From positions 1 to 52,739 of the forward strand of contig JAPEUI010000109.1 of assembly GCA_026025075.1 (NCBI GenBank): 52,739 bases of DNA. Direction: 5' to 3'. Under the pieces are notes generated by a model, which worked only from the letters and a program-made list of their open reading frames with translations, did no database searches and had not been told where the DNA came from. Below are positions 14,781 to 52,739 of this stretch, piece by piece. A program made the translations under genes and the position numbers. How positions within the stretch are numbered: the first letter of the stretch is position 1; each line of letters starts with the position of its first letter. This DNA is from Vezdaea acicularis. Its lineage: Eukaryota.

Positions 14781-17700
14781 ATGGCAGACGCATCGTCTTC
14801 ACCAGCATTCACGCTTGAAGAGGCCTATGCGGATGCTGTTGCGCAACTCGAACGCCTTCAACAGGCAGGCCACTTATCATTAGTTGACTATAACATCGTG
14901 GTAGATACGAGACGACCAGAAGAGCTACTAGCTATTATCAACGATGCTGCCACTCGCAGTGCCAAATCCCACCCGGATGCCAAAAAAAGAGTTCAACGCG
15001 TTGTGGAGCCCCTTCTCATGAGACTGGAAAGATTTGGAAGTGCTATTGATCTTTTAGCGCAATGTTCCCCTCAGATTACGGGCGTCAATATTGTAGGACT
15101 AATATGGGGATCAGTCAAGTTTCTCCTCGTCATCGCGCGAGATATAATCGATACATTCCAGAGCGTGTTGAATACCTTGGACTCGATTTTTAAAGCACTA
15201 CCTGTATTGGATATATACCATAAGCTGTTTGGATCTTCAAATATTCAGCTCATCCGGGCACCTCTTGTCAAGATGTATGCAGAGTTTGTCGCATTTGCGG
15301 TTCAAGCGGTCAAATCTTTTAATCGATCTGAAATGCGAACACTTGTCCGATCAGCGTGGAGCTCTCTGCAAAAAGAACTTAAATTGTGTATAATCAGAAT
15401 AGAAAAAGCGGGAGAGGATCTGGATAAAGCCGCGCAAATAGAACATCTAAACCAAGCAGAACAGATGCATAGCAACTTGAAGTTAGAAATCGAAAAGCAA
15501 GAGAGGTTCCGGCGTGAGGTCAGGCTTTACTTTGGTCAGACTATCGATAGTCGCATTTCCACTGATTTTGCCTTACCTCCTCTTAACGACGCTCCCATCG
15601 ACCTTTTGTCGGTACATTTCTATGGCCGCAATCAAGAAATTGAGCTTCTAGGTCGGCTTTTCCAGAAAAAGTACGGAGATAGTCCCACGCGTTGTGCGAT
15701 TCACGGAATGCCAGGCCTTGGCAAAACTCAGTTAGCACTGAAGTATGTGAAGGTTTCTTACGACCTTAAACGCTATTCACATGTATTTTGGATATCTGCT
15801 GCTACAATCGAGAGGCTCAATCAAGGCTTTTCTAAGATGCTTGATCTCCTAAATCACACGGATCGTTATCACCCAGAGCAGAACACAAAATTGACAGCAG
15901 CGCGCCGTTGGCTAGAAACGTCTCAATCAGGCAGCTCTAGGACCTGGCTACTCATCTTTGATAACGTAAATATAGACACACTCGAATTTATTCGAGAGCA
16001 CCTTCCCCGCCAAAACTCGCAAGGAAATATTTTATTCACAACAAGGACCGATGGAATCGCCAAAGCTGTAGTCCACGCAGCTGGAGAACAACATCAAGTT
16101 CTAGAGCTTCAAACTCCAAGCGTAGATGATGCGGCAAAACTACTCCTGGACCATTCTGAGATCGATGAGAGTAAGGTACCCTCCGCTTTGACTAAAGCAA
16201 GAAGATTGGTTGAAAGCGTTGGTTGCTTGCCGCTTGCTATCGGTCAAGCGGCGTCATTCATGAAACAATCACATAAGACTTTGGACGATCTATTGGTCCT
16301 GTACAGGGACGAGCACAAATTCCAGGTTCTAAGTTGGGAGAATGATCTGACCTCCTATGAGCAAAAATCTGTTACGGCCACCTTTGTTTCTCAATTTGAT
16401 ACTCTAGATCGCCTTCATCCTGAAACAAGCAGTCTCTTAAAAATACTCTCATTCTTGGACCCTGAAGGCATACCAGTTGACATGATTGTCGAAGGAGCCA
16501 AGACTTTGTTGCAGCAACCTTCTTCAACGATGCTGCTAGACAATTCTGCACAAGCGAGTAGATCAGTAACTCGCCTGGCGCACATTTTCAAAAGAAAACA
16601 ACGAAAACGACAGACCCCGATTAGCTTGTCCGAAAACGGCTCCTCGCAGAAATCTGATATTAGTTGTGATCCAATCATATGGTCGAGACTGGAAGCATTG
16701 GCTCAAACACCTATACAGCTGCAGAAAGCTATTCAGCAGCTTCAGAACCACTCATTAGTTGAGCATCTTCTTGATGTGAACACGCCTATACTTCGTTTGC
16801 ATGATTTGATACAATTCATGGTTCAGCAAAGAGTAAAGGTAGAGAGAACCGAAAATGAAAATTTCATCTTGGCGACAACGGTTGTCTGTAATGCCTTTCA
16901 AAAGGTTAGAAACCCCGAATCCAGCAAATCCTGGGTTCAGTGCGAGATGTATATTCCACATATTCAGTCTTTGCTTGCAAGAGATAGTGTCCATGGTCAA
17001 AACGCCTTAAGGCTTTTTTGGGCTGGCGCCGATATTGCAAGATACATGGGAGTAAGAGGACGCTTCGAAGAAGCCGCTAATATTCTAAAACGCACGCTAG
17101 AGGGCTGTGAGCGACAGCTGGGCCCAGACCGGGAAGATACGCTAAGAATGAGACACGCTCTTGGGAACCTCCTTATGAATCAAGGCCAATACGCTGAAGC
17201 TGAAGAGCTGTTCCGGCGAGTGCTAAAAAGAAGGGAGGAGATAGATTCAGACAGTCCTGATACTCTAAGGGCAATGGGTGGTCTTGCAAGTGCTCATGTG
17301 GCGCAAGGTCAATGTTTAGAGGCGGAACAGCTATACCTAAAGGTACTCGAAAACCTCGAGAAACAGATTGGTAAGGAACACCCAGATACTCTAAGGACAT
17401 TGGACGGTCTCGCATGGGTTTATAGCTATCAGGGCCAATATTCAAAAGCCAAAGATCTATATATACGGGGGCTTCAGGGGTGGCAAAAACTAATGGGTAC
17501 AAACAACCCCGAAGCATTAAGAGCGATGCGAAATCTTGCCAACGTATATTGCCAACAAATGGCTTACTCCCAGGCAGAGTCCTTGTATAAACGTGCGCTT
17601 GAAGAGTCGGAGAAAGAACTAGGGTGGGACCATCTCAGTACTTTGGAAGCTGCAGGAGGCCTTGCGATTGCCTACTCAAGTCAAAGTCGCTACCAGGAAG

Positions 17701-18089
17701 CGGAGCAGCTTTACAAGCGAGCACTCCTGGGCTTTCAGAAGTATCTAAAACCAGAGCACCCTCAAATAACAACAATTTTGCATAACCTTGCACTCGTCTA
17801 CAGCAATCTTGATAGGCACTCGGAAGCCGAAGAGCTATACAGGCAGGCATTGGAAGGAGAGGAAAAGCATTTGGGTCCGAACCACCCAGAGACTCTTGGA
17901 ACAGTAAACAATCTTGCGATGTTCTACGTGAATCAAGGCCGCTATACAGCAGCGGAGCAACTTTATTCTCGAGCGCTTGAGGGCCGAAAGAAATGCCTAG
18001 GCCATGACCATCCTGAAACGCTGAAGACGTTGGACAATATTGCAACCCTCCGTCAGCTGATGAACGCTCCTTCAATGACGCCTGGTTAG
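14781..18089 (+). CDS. Fungal NLR-like STAND protein: helical N-terminal (Goodbye-like) domain, NB-ARC, TPR repeats; intronless
   Basis: Walker A GMPGLGKT, Walker B WLLIFDNV, ILFTTR, GCLPLAI, LRLHD. About 8 kinesin-light-chain-like 42-aa TPRs (LGPNHPETLGTVNNLA). N-terminal LERFGSAIDLLAQ...GLIWGSVKFLL motif. Confidence 0.92.
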   Translation: MADASSSPAFTLEEAYADAVAQLERLQQAGHLSLVDYNIVVDTRRPEELLAIINDAATRSAKSHPDAKKRVQRVVEPLLMRLERFGSAIDLLAQCSPQITGVNIVGLIWGSVKFLLVIARDIIDTFQSVLNTLDSIFKALPVLDIYHKLFGSSNIQLIRAPLVKMYAEFVAFAVQAVKSFNRSEMRTLVRSAWSSLQKELKLCIIRIEKAGEDLDKAAQIEHLNQAEQMHSNLKLEIEKQERFRREVRLYFGQTIDSRISTDFALPPLNDAPIDLLSVHFYGRNQEIELLGRLFQKKYGDSPTRCAIHGMPGLGKTQLALKYVKVSYDLKRYSHVFWISAATIERLNQGFSKMLDLLNHTDRYHPEQNTKLTAARRWLETSQSGSSRTWLLIFDNVNIDTLEFIREHLPRQNSQGNILFTTRTDGIAKAVVHAAGEQHQVLELQTPSVDDAAKLLLDHSEIDESKVPSALTKARRLVESVGCLPLAIGQAASFMKQSHKTLDDLLVLYRDEHKFQVLSWENDLTSYEQKSVTATFVSQFDTLDRLHPETSSLLKILSFLDPEGIPVDMIVEGAKTLLQQPSSTMLLDNSAQASRSVTRLAHIFKRKQRKRQTPISLSENGSSQKSDISCDPIIWSRLEALAQTPIQLQKAIQQLQNHSLVEHLLDVNTPILRLHDLIQFMVQQRVKVERTENENFILATTVVCNAFQKVRNPESSKSWVQCEMYIPHIQSLLARDSVHGQNALRLFWAGADIARYMGVRGRFEEAANILKRTLEGCERQLGPDREDTLRMRHALGNLLMNQGQYAEAEELFRRVLKRREEIDSDSPDTLRAMGGLASAHVAQGQCLEAEQLYLKVLENLEKQIGKEHPDTLRTLDGLAWVYSYQGQYSKAKDLYIRGLQGWQKLMGTNNPEALRAMRNLANVYCQQMAYSQAESLYKRALEESEKELGWDHLSTLEAAGGLAIAYSSQSRYQEAEQLYKRALLGFQKYLKPEHPQITTILHNLALVYSNLDRHSEAEELYRQALEGEEKHLGPNHPETLGTVNNLAMFYVNQGRYTAAEQLYSRALEGRKKCLGHDHPETLKTLDNIATLRQLMNAPSMTPG

Positions 18090-43562: not shown

Positions 43563-46277
43563 ATGGCTGTTGTTACCCCAGTGGATCCATTCCTTCAGGG
43601 GCACACAGGTAGAAATACACGTGGTCTTCTCAGGCTCGTCATTCTTTGCACAATTGCGGCTGCAGCTGTAGCAAGTAGGCTGTTTAGTGTTATTAGTACG
43701 TACGCGCAAGGTCGAAGGAAAGGCTTCATAGGACCTCACCAATGGAGACTTGACGGAGATTAATCTCGTATCGTAAAAGTTACTAACTGATACTCTCCAC
43801 AACATAGGATTCGAGAGCATTATTCATGAATGTATGTTTTCCCAGCAGACCAAGTCGAGCAAATGGCTCCCTATACCTGCACTAAGAGCTTGACACCTCT
43901 GAGCCAATCTCATTTATGTAACTCATAGTCGATCCGTGGTTCAACTTTCGAGCGACGAAGCATTTAGTAGAGCATGGATTTTACAGTTTCTGGGACTGGT
44001 TCGACGATCGTAAGCCGCCCTTTTCATATTCCTAGCCATTAACATGAAAACTCAAAGACATGAGCAAAATCTCTTCATTCCCTCAAGGTGTGCGCATAGC
44101 TTTGAAAAAGCTAAACTTACCACTATCTACAGGCACATGGCATCCGCTCGGCCGAGTGACTGGAGGCACTCTTTATCCTGGACTCATGGTTACAAGTGGA
44201 GTCATCTACCACATCCTACGTTTCCTTACGATTCCTGTCGACATTCGAAATATATGTGTCTTGTTGGCTCCTGCATGCTCTGGATTGACAGCGTTAGCTA
44301 CCTACCTGTTAACGTCGGAGCTGTCACCTTCGCCCTCTGCTGGCCTACTAGCGGCCGTCTTTATGGGAATCGCGCCTGGCTATATCTCAAGATCAGTGGC
44401 TGGAAGCTACGACAATGAAGCTATTGCCATATTTCTCCTCGTCTTCACCTTCTATCTATGGATCAAGTCCGTGAAGAATGGTTCTGCCATGTGGGGAGCA
44501 CTGACTGCCCTTTTCTATTTCTACATGGTTTCAGCATGGGGTGGTTATGTCTTCATCACGAACATGATACCACTTCACGCCTTTGTCCTCATTGCCATGG
44601 GGCGATTCAGCCCTAGGCTGTATGTGAGCTACAGCACATGGTTTGCCTTAGGAACCCTTGCCAGTATGCAAGTGCCATTTGTAGGTTTTCTACCCATTCG
44701 GAGTAGTGAACATATGTCTGCGCTTGGTTTGTCTTCCATTTGATCGAGAGGGGAATATCTCTAATTGGAGAATAGGAGTCTTTGGTCTGATGCAGTTGGT
44801 CGCTTTTGTTGAGTTTGTGAGACAGCAGGTACCAAGTAAACAGTTCCAGACACTTTTGCGGGCACTGATTATCGTCATCTTTGTCGTGTCTATCGGTGGA
44901 CTAGTCCTCTTGACCGTATCGGGCGTGATAGCCCCTTGGACAGGGCGCTTCTACTCATTATGGGATACTGGCTATGCGAAAATCCATATTCCAATCATTG
45001 CATCCGTTTCGGAGCATCAGCCAACGGCCTGGCCAGCCTTCTTCTTCGACCTCAACATGCTGATCTGGCTTTTCCCGGCGGGCGTATATATGTGCTTTCG
45101 AAACCTTAAGGATGAGCAGGTCTTTATCATCATCTACGGAGTTCTATCAAGCTACTTTGCTGGAGTGATGGTTCGGCTGATGCTGACCTTGACACCTGTT
45201 GTTTGTGTAGCAGCAGCGCTAGCATTGTCTAACATACTCGATACCTATTTGACCGTGGATTCTCCATCAGCCGAGACGTATGCAAATGGTAATGGGTCGG
45301 GTGATATCCCACCGATCAACACCACCTCTTCAACAGCTTCCAAGAAAGCCGCCACCCATGACGGACTGCGATCAACTCGAGTTCCCTTTATTGGGGTATT
45401 CTCAAATGTTTCGAAAGCAACAATCGTAGGAGCAATCACCTCCTACCTTCTTCTCTTCGTGTTACATTGCACCTGGGTAACATCGAACGCTTATTCATCC
45501 CCGTCTGTTGTCCTAGCCAGCCGGCTACCTGATGGTAGTCAGCACATCATCGACGATTATCGAGAAGCTTACTACTGGCTTCGGCAAAATACCAAGCAGG
45601 ATGCTAAGATAATGTCATGGTGGGACTACGGCTATCAGATTGGTGGTATGGCAGACCGCGCGACGCTTGTTGATAATAATACCTGGAATAATACTCATAT
45701 TGCGACTGTTGGAAAAGCCATGAGCTCCCGAGAAGAAGTTAGCTATCCCATTATGCGGCAACATGAGGTTGACTACGTCCTGGTAGTATTTGGTGGTCTT
45801 CTCGGATATTCTGGAGACGACATCAACAAGTTCTTATGGATGGTGAGAATTGCTGAAGGTATCTGGCCAGATGAAGTCAAGGAACGAAACTTCTTCACTG
45901 CTAGAGGGGAGTACCGAGTTGATGATGAAGCGACACCCACGATGAAGAACAGTCTCATGTACGTAATAATGAATGAGGGCCAAGGATTTTACTAATGGAG
46001 TTGTAGGTATAAAATGTCGTACTACAACTACAACAACCTCTTTCCTGCTGGACAGGCTCAAGATCGAGTACGAGGCTCAAAATTGCCGACCGAAGGGCCG
46101 CAGCTGAATACCCTAGAGGAGGCGTTCACGAGCGAGAATTGGATTATTCGGATCTATAAGGTGAAAGATCTGGATAACGTGGGCCGAGATCACGCTAGTG
46201 CGGTTGCGTTTGATAAAGGCAACAAGAAGAAGAAATCGGCGGCGAAAAGAAGAGGGCGTATCTTAAGAGTTGATTGA
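43563..46277 (+). CDS. STT3: Oligosaccharyltransferase catalytic subunit STT3 (multi-exon)
   Basis: [81 protein letters not shown]. Confidence 0.97.
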
Positions 46278-46618
46278 TTTCTGGGATAAGAAAATTAGTG
46301 TAAAAGTATGTAGAGTAACAGTAAAAATCTTGCATAGGACTCTCTCATTTGCTGCGTAGTAATGGGTCAGACCACCATAGTCAAGCTGAGATGCCCCAAA
46401 GAGCCGGTATTGACGCATTCTAGTGCTGCATCTCGTTATTGATGATGTGACACGATTAGGATTATGGGAATTTCTTCCAGCAGCCAGACGGCCTAGAAGA
46501 TGGTTGCATACCGGGATGACGTGGTTGTAGTGGAGGGACGGCATAGATGCTAATTGGTTATTTGTGCATAAGCGAGCATTAGTATGCGCTTCTAATGCAA
46601 CGCAGCCTATTAAACGAT

Positions 46619-46686
46619 GAATAAACTGTCAAGCGCGCTTTCGTTTCGCTTGGCGTCAAGGACTAACGGCGCTTGACGGTTTATTC
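46619..46686. repeat. 18-bp inverted repeat (hairpin) upstream of the orphan ORF
   Basis: GAATAAACTGTCAAGCGC (46619-46636) and GCGCTTGACGGTTTATTC (46669-46686) are complementary at 17/18 positions. Confidence 0.7.
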
Positions 46687-47034
46687 CTCATCTCATTGGT
46701 TACACTTCAATTTTTAGTGTGCTCTATCTATGGTAGCGACTATACAACTTCTGATAACCTGTCGTGTCATTGAATCATTGGATAAAGTAAATTGCGCATG
46801 TATGAAAATTGCTTGTGTTAATCTCGCTTAAGCTAAATCAATTCGCAATTGGTTAGTTTCATTGAATCAGACCTAACAAAAATGGAATAGGCAGTTTTCA
46901 TATCACGCTGGACGGTTTATTCTACTTGTGATTGGTTATTATAGACACGCCACTATAAGCCATAAGTGGCCTTCCTACCATGTCAATAAATATCAATGCA
47001 TCCGCCATAGCATTTGATGTCTCCCATCAAAATC

Positions 47035-50000
47035 ATGGGGCGAAAAGCAAAGACTCAAGCAGAAAAGCTGCAGGCTCAACAAGCACGGCAAAATCATTAT
47101 CAACTTAGAACCTTGAATCAGCCCTATTTATCAACACCACTAAGCGTCTTACCAGAATCCACATCATCATCTATTCCAGCTGTTTTGGCTCCATCAATTT
47201 CCTCACCAGTTTTGCATGCTGCAAGTGAACAGAATGAGCCTTTTGATGGACTTGTCAATCTTTTTGCTGATGCCCAACTTGATGTTGAGTCTAATCCAGA
47301 AGCAGATCATCCTCTTTTGCCGGCAGAAGCATCTGAAGAATCTGATATTGACTTAAATATTCTACTAGATCATCATTCAACTACTTCAGATGAAGTCAAT
47401 TCGGAATCCAATGAACTTCTAAATCTATCATTTGCATCAAATCAGGAACCATCAACTATTCAAGGCCAATTAGATGTTGCTGATGAGGCCAGACTTGAGT
47501 TGAAAGCCTTCAGACAACCTTTAGAGCTTTTGGACAGCTCAGATATCTCTTCCAGTATAGCGTCTGATGTCTTGGAAAGAGACGATGATATTGCAGACAC
47601 TCAATCTTTTACATTGAGTGAAACAAATTCAGACGATGCTTTAGGATTGGATCATGAAATTGATGAACGACTACAAAAATCCTGGAGCACCACTTGTTCT
47701 TGCAATGCAGGAACAAACTTATCAGACGAATCAGGCTTGGGATTTAAGGAAATGTGTCAATATTGGAATAGGCATATGCCCAGAAGAGACAGTCCTAGTC
47801 GCTCTAGTACCTTTCCGATAAATTATGAAAATCTGTTACCAAGAGATGGAAGACACGGAGACTATCGGAACATTGCTTGGAAAGCATTGTTAGCGGGGGA
47901 AGATGGAATTCCTCCAAGTTTAAATGTTGCCTGTTCGGAAATAGAGTCTGGTATCCCTATTCAAGAATCTTCTCTCCAAATATCTCGACGTTGGGATGTA
48001 GACAGCTTGATAGCAGAGGTTACCAGTTTGGGCGTACATCGGGATGGATTTGATCTAGCCTATCGGCCTCCATACTTGCGACGTGTGACCCAAAATCCCT
48101 ATGTAATATTTCAAGGAAAACGCCTGCATCAGATAAAAAACCAAAGGTTAGGACATGGACTTGCCTCTGCCGGATTCAATTATCAGTGCCATGTTTTCTT
48201 TCCTCATATGCCTGTTCTTCATCGGGATGGAACTCATTTGACAGATGTACAACAGGAGGAATGGATTGACAACATTATCATTCCGTCCTTGCGCGAAAGT
48301 TGTCCAGATGATATTCTGCAACATCATCCTCGAAGTTTTGCAGAAGTTAAAATCAAAGCAACCGCCAAACAAGAGTGGCATCCTACCGGTGTGCAACAGC
48401 CAATAGATCTTCGATCTTGCATTCCTGAGGAGTATTTGGATTGTTTTTGGAATCTTGTCTTGCAGAAATGCAACAGCCCTAGATTTGCCATTTTCCGGGA
48501 GGTGTTTTTGATTGTGCAAGGGCACAATCTAAAGCTCTTTACCAAGAAGCTTGATCCTCAACAGGTTCGACAAGATTATTTCCGTCATCTTCGGCGATGT
48601 TTTCATGCCAATGAACGGTACATGCCTGCACAAAAATGTTGGATAGATTTAGGACTGGAAGACACTCCAGAACCATTTCAGAATGAAGCAGTAACTCTTT
48701 TGCGAAAATCCAAATGTTGTGCCAGCTGGAATATTCAATTTCAAGCTGTGGATCAAAGATCATCACTTCTTCGCACTCAAGAGTTTCCTTGGGCATTAAC
48801 TCGAGATATCATGTCAACTCGTGCTGAAATATTGCCAACAAACAAATGGCATGCCAAAGGCGGAATTGCTTTTAACAAAGCTTATAGCCTTCATAAAGAT
48901 CTCTTTACTACTCCAGTAAAAGGATTGGTTCCATTTGATCATCAGCAGCTGGAAGGATTAGCATATGATCAAGACCTGCTCAACCGTTGGTATGGGTTGA
49001 GCTATCGGGGCAGGCAAACCTCCCATCTAGACAAACGCCAGCATCTGCTAAAGATATATCAACATGCTAAACAACGGGTAAATCAAGCGATATGTTCTAC
49101 CATTGATACCTGCTTTGGTGTACGGCAAGAATATCGAATGACTCTTGAACGTTTTTCCCGCCTACAGTTAGATGCTGCTTTAAATGACGCAGCAAGCAAC
49201 GATCCATATCGACATCGGCCCTATTATGTATTTCGAACCAAAGATGTCAATACATATATTGGATATGACATCAATCGATGGTTGATGTGTCTAGAAGCAT
49301 TGATCTGTCAAGTTAATCCAGGGCCCATTGGACTTTCTCCTGCATCTGCAGAGCAACAGATGATCAATGGTGTGATGGTTAGCGCTATCATCAGAACATT
49401 GCATTCCAACTTGGGAAATGTACAAAAATTGCTGCAAAGATCTATATGGTTGCATGATTGGAAAGTCAAATCACTTTTGGAAGAAAATGAAAGTGAATTA
49501 GATGAGAATGAAGAATTGAATGAAGTTTCAACACGTCTAGGGCTGGATTATTGCAAAAGTTTAGAACAGACTGGTTTAGCTTAGTTGCCCTCAGATTTAA
49601 TCCTATGGGAAGGTCTTCCAATGTTCAAGCCAGATATCATTCCTCGACTAGGACTAGCAATCAATGGATTTGGTAGACAAAGAAACCAAACCTTGAGGAT
49701 TCAGAATCTTCTTCAGCAAGAACATCGAGAGTTGGCGCTTTTTCGGGAATGGTTGCAGCGGTCACTGACTTTTCCTAAGGAGAGCTTGGATCCTCATGCG
49801 CGCAAATGGGTATTTCAACTAGGAGCTGAATTGATCATTCAATCCTATCAACTGGAGATCCTTGATATTCTGCGTCAACGTTCCAAGGAATTGGATCCAA
49901 GAATAGACATAGTCCAAGAACGCTTTGATGCAATACAGTCTAAAGGCCTAGAGGGATTTAGCTATGATCTTTTAACAAGACTTCTGGAGATGCCGCCGCA

Positions 50001-50655
50001 TCTGATCCTAGTTAAAAAAGCCGCCCGTCGTGGTGTGAGCCTTTTGGATCAATACAATACTGGTACCTGGATTGGCCGCATTGCTGGACTGTTTGGTTTA
50101 GATGATAACATGCCTGGCGCAGTCAAAAAACGTGGATGGGAACACAGCCCATTTCGAGAATGGAAACGCCGGCTTCGACATATTGTCAAAGATGTGCTAG
50201 GACCAAAGACATCAAAAAGCTTTGAAAAAGTGATCAATCTTCACGCTTGCCAAAAGATGTGGATCATACCGCAGTACAATATTGACAAACTCTCTGTCAT
50301 ACGAACAGCTTCAAAGCACAATGCGCCCAAGACTTTTGAAATGCTGCAAGAGATGGAAACATTGTCTCGGACCAACTGGGTTATCCCGCAGCTGAATCCA
50401 CTGTATTTTGGAATGTTTGAAGCTTTGGAGCAATCAGTCCAGCAGGAGAGCCGTCTTAGTACTGGATCAAATCCACATTGGCAAGAAATTCATGAACAAC
50501 TGACGAGAGCAGATCAGCTTCTTCTTTTGACTGAAGGTGACATTTATTCTGAAGACTCCGGATTAATCAAAAATCCAATACGATATGGCATAGACACCAA
50601 GCTAAATCTAGCTTTAGAATTCAAAAATCAACTGGAAAGAAACAGAGAAAACTGA
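47035..50655 (+). pseudogene. ~1200-codon intronless orphan ORF interrupted by a single in-frame TAG (49582-49584); probably mobile-element encoded
   Basis: ORFs 47014..49584 and 49585..50655 abut in the same frame (TGLA*LPSD). More AT-rich than neighbouring genes and flanked by repeats. Confidence 0.75.
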
Positions 50656-50749
50656 TCAATGTTTTGCGTGGTCATCATCGTGGAATGGATTTCAATTAGT
50701 CAATTTTGATAGATTCAATGTTCTGGCAGCAGTTTCCAGACATTGAGTG

Positions 50750-51610
50750 AAGAATTGCCAATTTTGAATCTCCAAGTCCTCTGGGATCAGTTTTGCGTCA
50801 TCGATCACGGATTTGTCGATTCTCAATCTGTTGATCCTCTAATATCAATCGAGATACATCAACTCTTGACATCAACTTTTTTGATCTGCCAGTTTTCACC
50901 CTCTGGATCATCCGGCATTGGTTTTGACTTGTCGATTTTTACCCTCTTGACTTTTTGAAATAGATTCCGAGTCATCCATGATGAACCTGCCAATTTTGGC
51001 CCTTCTGGTCTTGTGGCATCAGTTTTGTGTCATCGATCACGGATTTATCGATTCTCAATCTGAAGATCCTCTGGAATTGATCTTGAGACATCAACTCTTG
51101 AGATCAACTCTTGATCTGCCAGTTTTCACCCTCTTGATCATCCGGCATTGGTTTTGACTTGTCAATTTTTACCCTCTTGGCCTTTTGAAATTGATTCCGA
51201 GTCGTCTTTCAGAAATCTGCCAATTCCAGCCCTCCTGGTCTTCTGGCATTGGTTTCGCGTCATCGATCACAGATTTGACGATTCTCAATCTGATGATCCT
51301 TTGGAATCGATCTTGAGACATCAACTCTTGACATCAACTCTTGATCTGCCAGTTTTGACACTCTTGATCTTCCGGCATTAGTTTTGACTTGTCGATTTTT
51401 ACCCTCTTGGCCTTTTGAAATTGATTCCAAGTCGTCTTTCAGAAATCTGCCAATTTTGGCCCTCCTGGTCTTCTGGCATCAGTTTTGCGTCATTGATCAC
51501 GGATTTGACGATTTTCAATCTGATGATCTTTTGGAATTGATTTCGAGACATCAATCTTTGATCTGCGAACTATTTTTACCCTTTAGGCTTTCTGAAATTG
51601 ATTCTGGGTT
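50750..51610. repeat. ~230-bp tandem repeat, about 3.5 diverged copies
   Basis: Anchor atcagttttgcgtcatcgatcac recurs with substitutions at 50786, 51018, 51248 and 51478 (periods 232, 230, 230). Confidence 0.92.
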
Positions 51611-51689
51611 ACTGATCATTGATTCTTGTCTTAACACTTAAAGTTTGTCGGCATAGCTTTTAATTTATTTATCTCTACTCCCTCGATCT

Positions 51690-52335
51690 GAAAAGCACTT
51701 AGGCCCAATTAGGCTGTCACAAATAACATTTTCCGCCTCAAAGCCCAAATGTCTTTATTAAACAATTCTATTGGTCGTTTAGAAACGGGTCTAAACTCAA
51801 GACGGCCTAAGTGCTTTTAATAAGCAGGGGTATTTCGTCGTTGTTGAAAGCACTTAGGCCCGATTAGGCTGTCACATGCGACATTGCCAGCCGGACGGCC
51901 GGGATGTGTTTATCGAACAATTCTATTGGCCATCAGGAAGCGGGTCTAAGCTCAAGACGGCCTAAGTGCTTTCAATAAGCAGGGGTATTTCGTCGTTGTT
52001 GAAAGCACTTAGGCCCGATTAGGCTGTCACATGCGACATTGCCAGCCGGACGGCCGGGATGTGTTTATCGAACAATTCTATTGGCCATCAGGAAGCGGGT
52101 CTAAGCTCAAGACGGCCTAAGTGCTTTCAATAAGCAGGGGTATTTCGTCGTTGTTGAAAGCACTTAGGCCCGATTAGGCTGTCACATGCGACATTGCCAG
52201 CCGGACGGCCGGGATGTGTTTATCGAACAATTTTATTGGCCGTCAGGAAGCGGGTCTAAGCTCAAGATGGCCTAAGTGCTTTCAATAAGCAGAGGTATTT
52301 TGTCGTTGTTGAAAGCACTTAGGCCCAATTAGGCT
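51690..52335. repeat. 155-bp tandem repeat (4 full copies plus a partial) carrying 17-bp inverted arms
   Basis: GCACTTAGGCC at 51695, 51850, 52005, 52160 and 52315. Arms TTGAAAGCACTTAGGCC and GGCCTAAGTGCTTTCAA. Confidence 0.97.
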
Positions 52336-52612
52336 ACCATCTATGAGTCATCGTATATTGAAATCAAAGTGATAAGGTATTGAATATATGACGGTGATAA
52401 TATTGATATGAATCCATCAGGTTGTCTTTCAAAATTCAAGCCAAATTCTTGGTTCAAATTTTCTATAAGTAGACGTAAAGTTTTCCATGTTAAAGTCTTT
52501 AAAATTGATCGCTATTAACTCTTAAAGACTTCCATATAGCCATTCTCTTATCGCTCATCATTTCCAAAGTCTATACTATTCCTTTAAGAAATAGTTCCTC
52601 TTTACGCTTATC

Positions 52613-52739
52613 ATGGAGTCTTATTTTGAAAATGTTGTATCGTCTGCATCCCATCTCAACGATCACATTATACCAGACACCACACAACTGACGGTCGAAG
52701 AACTCAAAGCCGTTCAAGAGTCAATTCAAGATTGTAGCT
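52613..52739 (+). CDS. Possible 5' end of a gene running off the window
   Basis: atcATGG context; frame open to the window end: MESYFENVVSSASHLNDHIIPDTTQLTVEELKAVQESIQDCS. Confidence 0.3.
   Translation, partial: MESYFENVVSSASHLNDHIIPDTTQLTVEELKAVQESIQDCS

Follow-up and report, generated by a model that had tools for sequence, protein, structure and literature searches.

Among described enzymes, those closest to the gene reported here belong to Rep_trans (PF02486), a superfamily of tyrosine nickases built on a TBP-like fold, which includes the rolling-circle initiators RepC and RepD of the pT181 plasmids and RepSTK1 (PDB 4CWC, 4CIJ). According to Carr 2016, R140, D142, A144, D146, R212 and E214 are strictly conserved in Rep_trans, the catalytic Y191 is accompanied by R189 and K193 (R189-x-Y191-x-K193), and the metal is bound by E214, D142 and D46, each from a separate strand, with D46 located on strand 1; the two Rep_trans structures share 13% identity. 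Rep-Arvir (DUF7845, PF25227), encoded by archaeal viruses and plasmids, is a family with conserved acidic residues and a conserved Tyr that was likewise tied to Rep_trans by structure alone, and it took the known range of the fold beyond bacteria (NAR 2026, PMC13107129). The same paper describes Rep_trans as apparently confined to bacteria, with a sister family in archaea. In the MOBT relaxases of integrative and conjugative elements (RelSt3, Tn916 Orf20, ICEBs1 NicK), a Rep_trans domain is described as nicking a chromosomally integrated mobile element. Here, we report a disrupted gene at 47035-50655 on the + strand of contig JAPEUI010000109.1 of the fungus Vezdaea acicularis (52,739 nucleotides; this whole stretch is called the window below). 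With moderate confidence, we read it as a disrupted gene copy whose intact form would encode a metal-dependent tyrosine nickase resembling Rep_trans and working for a repeated element of fungi.

The region holds a single intronless frame of 1206 codons, which upon translation is broken once, by a TAG at 49582-49584. It is a nonsense-disrupted copy of the only long gene in a repeated unit of ~5 kb, and in related fungi this unit is found at other sites in the genome. The ATG at 47035 is backed in the alignment by homologues with an MG[CR]R start. In the column of the TAG, 17 of the 20 covering homologues are read as W, while the closest one (P0002) has L and one has Y. Beyond it, homologues run on for ~350 residues that match window positions 49585-50652, and homologues of 950-1120 amino acids (aa) align over the second part of the frame (49585-50655). 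Since the homologues read through this site with a conserved G-x-A-W-L-P, the TAG constitutes a nonsense change in a full-length gene and no natural end. Because it is broken by the TAG, the window's own copy is probably inactive.

The encoded protein consists of a basic N-terminus, an acidic linker, a predicted catalytic domain of ~430 aa and a helical C-terminal half of ~470 aa (Table 1). An earlier note, made from the letters of this stretch alone, had described the frame with its single stop, the basic N-terminus, the long acidic linker and a series of short motifs. All of these are in place, including the string QHHPRSF in the translation. The N-terminus may act as a nuclear localisation signal. 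The linker is poorly conserved and is mainly represented by gaps in the aligned homologues.

The same note called the protein an orphan, which it is not. A word-based search recovered 35 relatives, and a profile search of 1.84 billion cluster representatives returned 1499 at E<=1e-3, 1041 at 1e-10 and 500 at 1e-30. The window protein is a member of a large, unannotated family of Ascomycota. All named relatives (10 look-ups) stem from this phylum, comprising lichen fungi and Fusarium, and all are entered as "hypothetical protein". Their sources are Vezdaea acicularis, Coniosporium apollinis, Pycnora praestabilis, Xylographa, Flavoplaca and Teloschistes, as well as Fusarium oxysporum, F. mundagurra and F. 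bulbicola; this taxonomic range is a sample, because 20 clusters were looked up and 10 of them are nameless. In Fusarium, 16 members of 352-1475 aa fall into one 90% cluster. Pfam assigns no family to the window protein at E<=1, nor to 20 long members at E<=0.01. Across the 35 members there is no shared Pfam match, and the 10 families that were hit in total each occur in only one or two members.

For an estimate of conservation, 173 relatives were aligned to the core of the protein, and in each column the covering sequences were counted (Table 1). The most invariant residues of the fungal family are the counterparts of the Rep_trans invariants. In our own alignment of nine Rep_trans proteins, the latter comprise R140, D142, A144 and D146, R189, Y191, N192 and K193, and R212 and E214. 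This alignment contains four staphylococcal sequences and five from other plasmids at 26-32% identity; the five diverse genes were drawn from plasmid records because the RepC relatives listed were all at least 86% identical. Four motif pairs emerge. W-D-V-D-S of the fungal family corresponds to D46 on strand 1, W-x-D-x-[GA]-x-E to R-x-D-x-A-x-D, K-A-Y-N-x-x-K to R-x-Y-N-K, and R-x-E-x-R to R-x-E. The fungal motifs keep the order of Rep_trans and its i/i+2 spacing, as expected for residues on one face of a sheet. The tyrosine lies on a strand in a basic context, as judged from the sequence and the predicted secondary structure. Three of these pairs (DLGLED with D-x-A-x-D, YSLHK with Tyr and Lys, RQEYR with R-x-E) had been proposed in the earlier note, and the same positions are indeed invariant in the family. 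The homologue alignment that it suggested as a check shows the motif residues to be invariant or nearly so among the 173 relatives, beyond chance. It had overlooked WDVDS as a candidate for the strand-1 Asp.

Table 1. Features of the gene, its protein and the surrounding repeats, with conservation counts (number of relatives carrying the residue out of those covering the column).
Feature	Position	Strand	Remark
Repeated unit, approximate	46438-51600	+	~600 bp upstream region, gene, 230-nt tandem array
Upstream repeats inside unit	46553-46938	+	ATTGGTTA four times in 385 bp
~30-nt motif (CGCTTGACGGTTTATTC...), three copies	46606-46636 (inverted), 46669-46702, 46906-46938		
Frame part 1	47035-49581	+	849 codons, residues 1-849; ATG at 47035
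Basic N-terminus MGRKAKTQAEKLQAQQARQNHY	47035-47100	+	6 K+R vs 1 D+E in first 30 residues
Acidic linker, residues 60-235	47212-47739	+	41 D+E vs 6 K+R in 176 residues
Predicted catalytic domain, residues 309-734	47959-49236	+	two-module curved β-sheet like Rep_trans and TBP
WDVDS, first strand	47992-48006	+	D321, D323: strand-1 metal-ligand candidates (RepDE D46)
HVFFPH	48190-48207	+	string found as quoted in the earlier note
GHNLK	48520-48534	+	carries K500, which has no named Rep_trans equivalent
WIDLGLED	48640-48663	+	W-x-D-x-[GA]-x-E on strand; counterpart of Rep_trans R-x-D-x-A-x-D
KAYSLHK	48877-48897	+	consensus K-A-Y-N-x-x-K; Y617 candidate nucleophile, counterpart of R-I-Y-N-K
GVRQEYR	49117-49137	+	R697-x-E699, counterpart of Rep_trans R212-x-E214
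In-frame TAG	49582-49584	+	gene-breaking; homologues have G-x-A-W-L-P here
Frame part 2	49585-50655	+	356 codons (49585-50652) and TGA; conserved C-terminal region of family
230-nt tandem array, four copies	50649-51570	+	begins at the gene's stop codon; inside shared unit
155-nt tandem array, four or more copies	51676-52440		hairpin per unit, 14-17 bp perfect stem
D321			130/130
D323			128/130
K500			156/157; nearly invariant
D538			151/153
Position 540			G 117, A 33 of 153
E542			128/154
Position 615			K 125, Q 30, R 2 of 157
Y617			156/156
N618			135/156
K621			147/156
R697			148/148
E699			148/148
R701			139/148

AlphaFold2, run without templates, yields a confident model of residues 235-849, with a predicted local distance difference test (pLDDT) score of 86.7 and a predicted template modelling (pTM) score of 0.86. 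The core model of residues 309-734 reaches a pLDDT of 93.2 and a pTM of 0.90. The predicted core resembles a crescent-shaped β-sheet of two five-strand modules with TBP-like topology. When the core model was compared with 48,161 PDB representatives using VIA-align, the first two ranks were taken by the two Rep_trans crystal structures (4CWC and 4CIJ), which were matched over 64-68% of their length. The next domain-spanning matches are to TBP, with Z lower than for Rep_trans (4.7, 4.1, 4.1), and the remaining rows are helical-hairpin matches of ~60 residues. The fold check proposed in the earlier note is borne out by VIA-align in this respect, and not by Foldseek, which finds no match in the PDB. 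Membership in TBP itself was rejected, as there is no Pfam match and the fold matches at a lower Z than Rep_trans.

In the numbering of the core model, the motif strands comprise residues 8-21, 227-237, 303-310 and 388-395, with one motif per predicted strand, and Y617 is placed at the end of strand 303-310. The carboxylate candidates D323/D321, D538 and E699 are each assigned to a different predicted strand, and these strands follow one another in the correct order, as judged from sequence and secondary structure. VIA-align starts by pairing residue 39 of the 4cwc chain with model residue 8, and residue 1 of the 4cij chain with model residue 7. Given an ungapped strand 1, the strand-1 ligand, which is D46 in 4cwc and D9 in 4cij, would fall on core residue 15, corresponding to D323. 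We infer this placement because the VIA-align output gives ranges only. A dimer prediction with two copies and Mg received a score of 0.00 and a mark of 0.32; here, the alignment was unused and the chain poorly folded, and the result is no evidence either way.

The genomic context of the gene was investigated using Logan contigs from three moss-metagenome runs (X1-X3) and one "organism A" run (X5), which were aligned to window positions 44000-52739. In X1, the upstream flank, which contains an STT3-like gene, is covered by one long contig (depth 9.3) with 70 differences and 3 gaps over 2439 letters. The alignment of upstream flank contigs ends at 46438 in X1 and X2; in X5 it ends at 46360. Where contigs begin to align at exactly 46438 and extend to the right, their left flanks differ from that of the window, with the same 30-letter consensus in X1 and X2, and X5 has a different left flank on a 17,268-letter contig that ends with window positions 46438-47010. 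As ~46438-51600 is joined to other flanks, the gene sits in a repeated unit. The ends of the unit are imprecise; the right end falls within 51298-51664, with loose ends at 51298, 51530 and 51664. The interior (46438 to ~51600) is split into short contigs of higher per-contig depth than the flank (20-31 vs 9.3 in X1, 11-17 vs ~6 in X2, 8-9 vs 3-4 in X3). Near-identity to the window is seen in some of these interior contigs (1-2 differences over 250-340 letters).

A second copy in Vezdaea acicularis is represented by an NCBI protein (P0001) on a 12.2-kb contig, which is 99% identical to the window protein (388/393 and 351/356). It is annotated as 746 aa, in a model that starts at the internal M392 and leaves out ~67 codons spanning the stop, which are treated like an intron. 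A pseudogene is probably concealed behind this public entry.

Further copies were found in 21 metagenome loci, which form 15 groups once duplicates are taken together; with 98-99% identity to the L004 group, L007 and L010 are possible additional duplicates. Full-length open frames are present in L002 as well as in L004, L005 and L006. The frame of L001 is open over positions 6-873 of the family hidden Markov model (HMM), and L008 matches HMM positions 5-727 only. The family gene is split by stops in L003, L010 and L017, and reduced to fragments in L013-L015, L016 and L020. L011, L012, L018 and L019 are without a family open reading frame (ORF) of 150 aa or more, and contig ends truncate L007, L009 and L021. 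The intact copies are under purifying selection, with a ratio of non-synonymous to synonymous substitution rates (dN/dS) of 0.13 over 875 codons between intact L004 and intact L001. Between L004 and the broken L003, the ratio is 0.26-0.46. Taken together, different flanks, multiple copies, broken copies and selection mark the unit as repeated and probably mobile, with a protein that is selected while the unit is active.

The composition of the window changes close to the left end of the unit. GC drops at 46.3 kb from ~0.48 (10000-46300) to 0.42 (46300 onwards), TpA/ApT falls from 0.72 to 0.50, and (CpA+TpG)/(ApC+GpT) rises from ~1.3 to 1.84. Repeat-induced point mutation (RIP) was rejected as a cause of the low GC, as the gene has a TpA/ApT of 0.50 vs 0.72-0.77 in the rest of the window and a (CpA+TpG)/(ApC+GpT) of 1.84 vs 1.1-1.36, both of which are the opposite of RIP.

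An unlikely alternative is that the family consists of host genes that do not move. Here, the TBP-like double-module sheet and the conserved Asp, Glu, Tyr and Arg residues would serve other chemistry or nucleic-acid binding, and the different flanks would be the outcome of ordinary rearrangement and paralogy. However, the invariant residues of the family give the whole Rep_trans set in order and not a subset of it, and TBP is not known to contain such catalytic residues. In addition, the broken copies, the truncated near-identical members and the foreign composition fit a selfish repeat better. The same holds for the junctions that three runs share at precisely the same position, which would be less expected of a housekeeping gene.

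Several results weigh against a Rep_trans-like nickase encoded by a mobile unit. At the level of sequence, the membership in Rep_trans that the earlier note had considered finds no confirmation. None of 35 family members matches PF02486 at E<=10. The Pfam model scores 36.5 bits on pT181 RepC (cut-off 29.6), and since it detects this protein, the test works. A comparison of profiles with hhalign gave a probability of 0.08% and an E of 0.62 for the fungal profile (55 sequences) against a shallow Rep_trans profile in which 4 of the 9 sequences are at least 83% identical. A trimmed, permissive run resulted in a probability of 0.07%, and neither run paired the motifs. A profile search of PDB sequences returned no matches at E<=10, and a separate PDB sequence search was likewise negative. 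Among the structure searches, the best E of Foldseek against the PDB was 0.15-0.17, and against BFVD there was no match at E<=1e-3 (best E 0.024). An uncharacterised Inoviridae sp. protein at rank 5 in BFVD was unusable with an E of 0.17, and the ESM Atlas gave no usable match. Within the motifs, the Lys that follows the Tyr is found at +4 in the fungal family and at +2 in Rep_trans, and the first Arg of the Rep_trans R-x-D is replaced by W. The fungal domain is ~430 aa in size, compared with ~220 aa in Rep_trans, and contains long helical insertions. Unlike Rep_trans enzymes, the whole protein measures ~1200 aa, with a disordered acidic linker, a large C-terminal half and a eukaryotic host.

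Some features that would be looked for in a mobile element were also not recovered for the unit. We could define neither its termini nor a target-site pattern or target-site duplications, and no terminal inverted repeats were found between its two ends. The depth excess would correspond to about 2-3 copies, which is only a hint because contig depth is no copy number; in X5 there is no depth excess inside the unit. A conserved origin hairpin (stem of at least 14) was not detected, as each of the 21 loci has at most one hairpin and none is common to different loci. No fused long forms were seen among relatives at 1960-5000 aa, which is weak evidence. A 1583-aa ORF with OrsD (PF12013, residues 14-121) and DEAD/Helicase_C domains (SF2, residues 963-1265) follows the family gene in the same orientation, at a distance of ~680 bp, in L004 (6647-11395), and also in L005, L006 and L009. 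This ORF occurs in one locus group only, and in the close relatives L003 and L012 it does not follow the gene; it is therefore no constant partner of the family gene.

Without a link in sequence, and with a domain of about doubled size, W in place of Arg and Lys at +4, we do not file the protein in PF02486. Instead, our proposal is a protein that acts in the manner of Rep_trans enzymes and may be very distantly related to them. It is set apart from Rep-Arvir by the description of the latter (archaeal, with a winged helix-turn-helix domain after the catalytic domain) and by Pfam, as none of the 35 fungal family members matches DUF7845 at E<=10. The likeness to the MOBT relaxases is one of description only, and these are described as bacterial enzymes that act with a conjugation apparatus.

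That the resemblance to Rep_trans arose by chance appears doubtful to us, even in view of the negative searches. Rep_trans had been named from the motifs before the structure search was made, and two distant structures then ranked first and second of 48,161. The only other family known with the same topology ranked next among the domain-spanning matches. The matched motif residues are moreover the most invariant ones in 173 sequences.

The earlier note had further suggested that the protein acts on the neighbouring palindromes. This finds no support: the 155-nt array lies outside the stretch common to related contigs, although it adjoins the unit, and hairpins are uncommon in the 21 homologous loci. 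The four runs give no cover to 51592-52739, which in itself proves nothing. The four hairpins of this array in the window have 20-nt arms with 95% complementarity and a loop of ~17-29 nt. Better candidates for protein-binding or origin-like sites may be the repeats upstream of the gene, inside the unit. ATTGGTTA has 5 matches in the window, where 1.08 would be expected; none of 100 shuffles gives as many. An inverted repeat with 31-nt arms, 81% complementary, spans 46606-46699. The 230-nt array downstream of the gene has copies that are 63-100% identical to the reference copy, as well as sub-repeats of ~38 nt in 11 copies. Its copy number varies between runs: X1 and X2 contain a joint that links 50746 directly to 51444 and so leaves out 697 letters. 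In L003, L012 and L017, tandem arrays built from units of 20-40 nt follow the gene; in L004-L006 and L009, such arrays follow the helicase ORF.

The least probable explanation, to which we give little credence, places the family in repeat-rich or chromosome-end regions, where its genes would be amplified by recombination like helicase-bearing subtelomeric elements, with a nickase-like protein for local amplification: the downstream helicase ORF in four loci, the tandem arrays that flank the gene in the window, L003, L012 and L017, and the distance of only 2 kb between the gene and the window end would fit, but there are no telomere repeats (no TTAGGG x3 in 28 loci, none by eye in window 50600-52739), the helicase is missing downstream in the close relatives L003 and L012, and the window runs past the arrays into an ATG-started 42-codon frame (52613-52738) that continues off its end, which is therefore no chromosome end.

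If the protein is indeed a Rep_trans-like nickase, the three carboxylates would hold Mg2+ or Mn2+, and Tyr617 would attack one strand of a DNA substrate. The enzyme would thereby become linked to the 5' phosphate and free a 3'-OH, which could either prime strand-displacement synthesis or be rejoined. In this way, the enzyme may serve the copying or movement of its own unit, possibly in a rolling-circle-like mode. Catalysis, DNA substrate and route of movement are inferences here; the frame, the family and its conservation, the resemblance in fold, the purifying selection on intact copies and the different flanks are observed. Such a function would run parallel to that of the Helitron Rep, with a non-HUH nuclease in its place. 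To our knowledge, Helitrons with their RepHel protein (HUH and helicase) are the only established class of eukaryotic transposons thought to use a Tyr nickase and rolling-circle-like copying. RepHel is a possible functional analogue; the fungal family differs in fold and has neither an HUH motif nor a fused helicase. Membership in the HUH enzymes was rejected, as the His pair of HVFFPH is not in H-U-H spacing, its second His lies outside the family consensus and there is no Pfam match.

More tentatively, and short of an even chance in our estimate, the units may form an unrecognised class of eukaryotic mobile elements that are copied or moved by a tyrosine nickase of the Rep_trans superfamily, with its TBP fold, as the first such case in eukaryotes. 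A literature search on Rep_trans combined with fungi, transposons or eukaryotes, or on locus tags and accessions of family members, found no description of a eukaryotic member, and as far as this search goes, an enzyme of the Rep_trans type is so far unreported from eukaryotes. If true, the Rep_trans superfamily would be present in all three domains of life, and fungi would possess a further transposition system based on a nickase, separate from the HUH-based Helitrons. For eukaryotes as a whole, this would be a second kind of Tyr-nickase element in addition to Helitrons. At least 1499 "hypothetical" protein clusters would gain a testable function, including multi-copy genes of Fusarium oxysporum and of many lichen fungi. 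The lineage of TBP-fold nucleases would be universal, a point of relevance to how TBP itself arose.

Large imperfect palindromes of 270-1000 bp, with arms that are 72-89% identical, were observed at L003:6507-6846, L008:3297-4299, L013/L014:5885-6196 and L002:573-844. In L003, L008 and L013/L014 they lie 1.6-6 kb from the family genes, and in L002 ~9 kb upstream. They may reflect repeat-rich surroundings only. L002 also contains, at 17296-18084 on the - strand, an ORF with DUF7587 (PF24494, E 1.5e-30) ~4 kb downstream of the intact family gene.

Upstream of the unit, the window carries ordinary intron-containing genes on the + strand, which by eye alone we take to be AMP deaminase and STT3. 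Its first 4000 positions are much richer in GC (0.655, 0.608) than the remainder (0.42-0.56).

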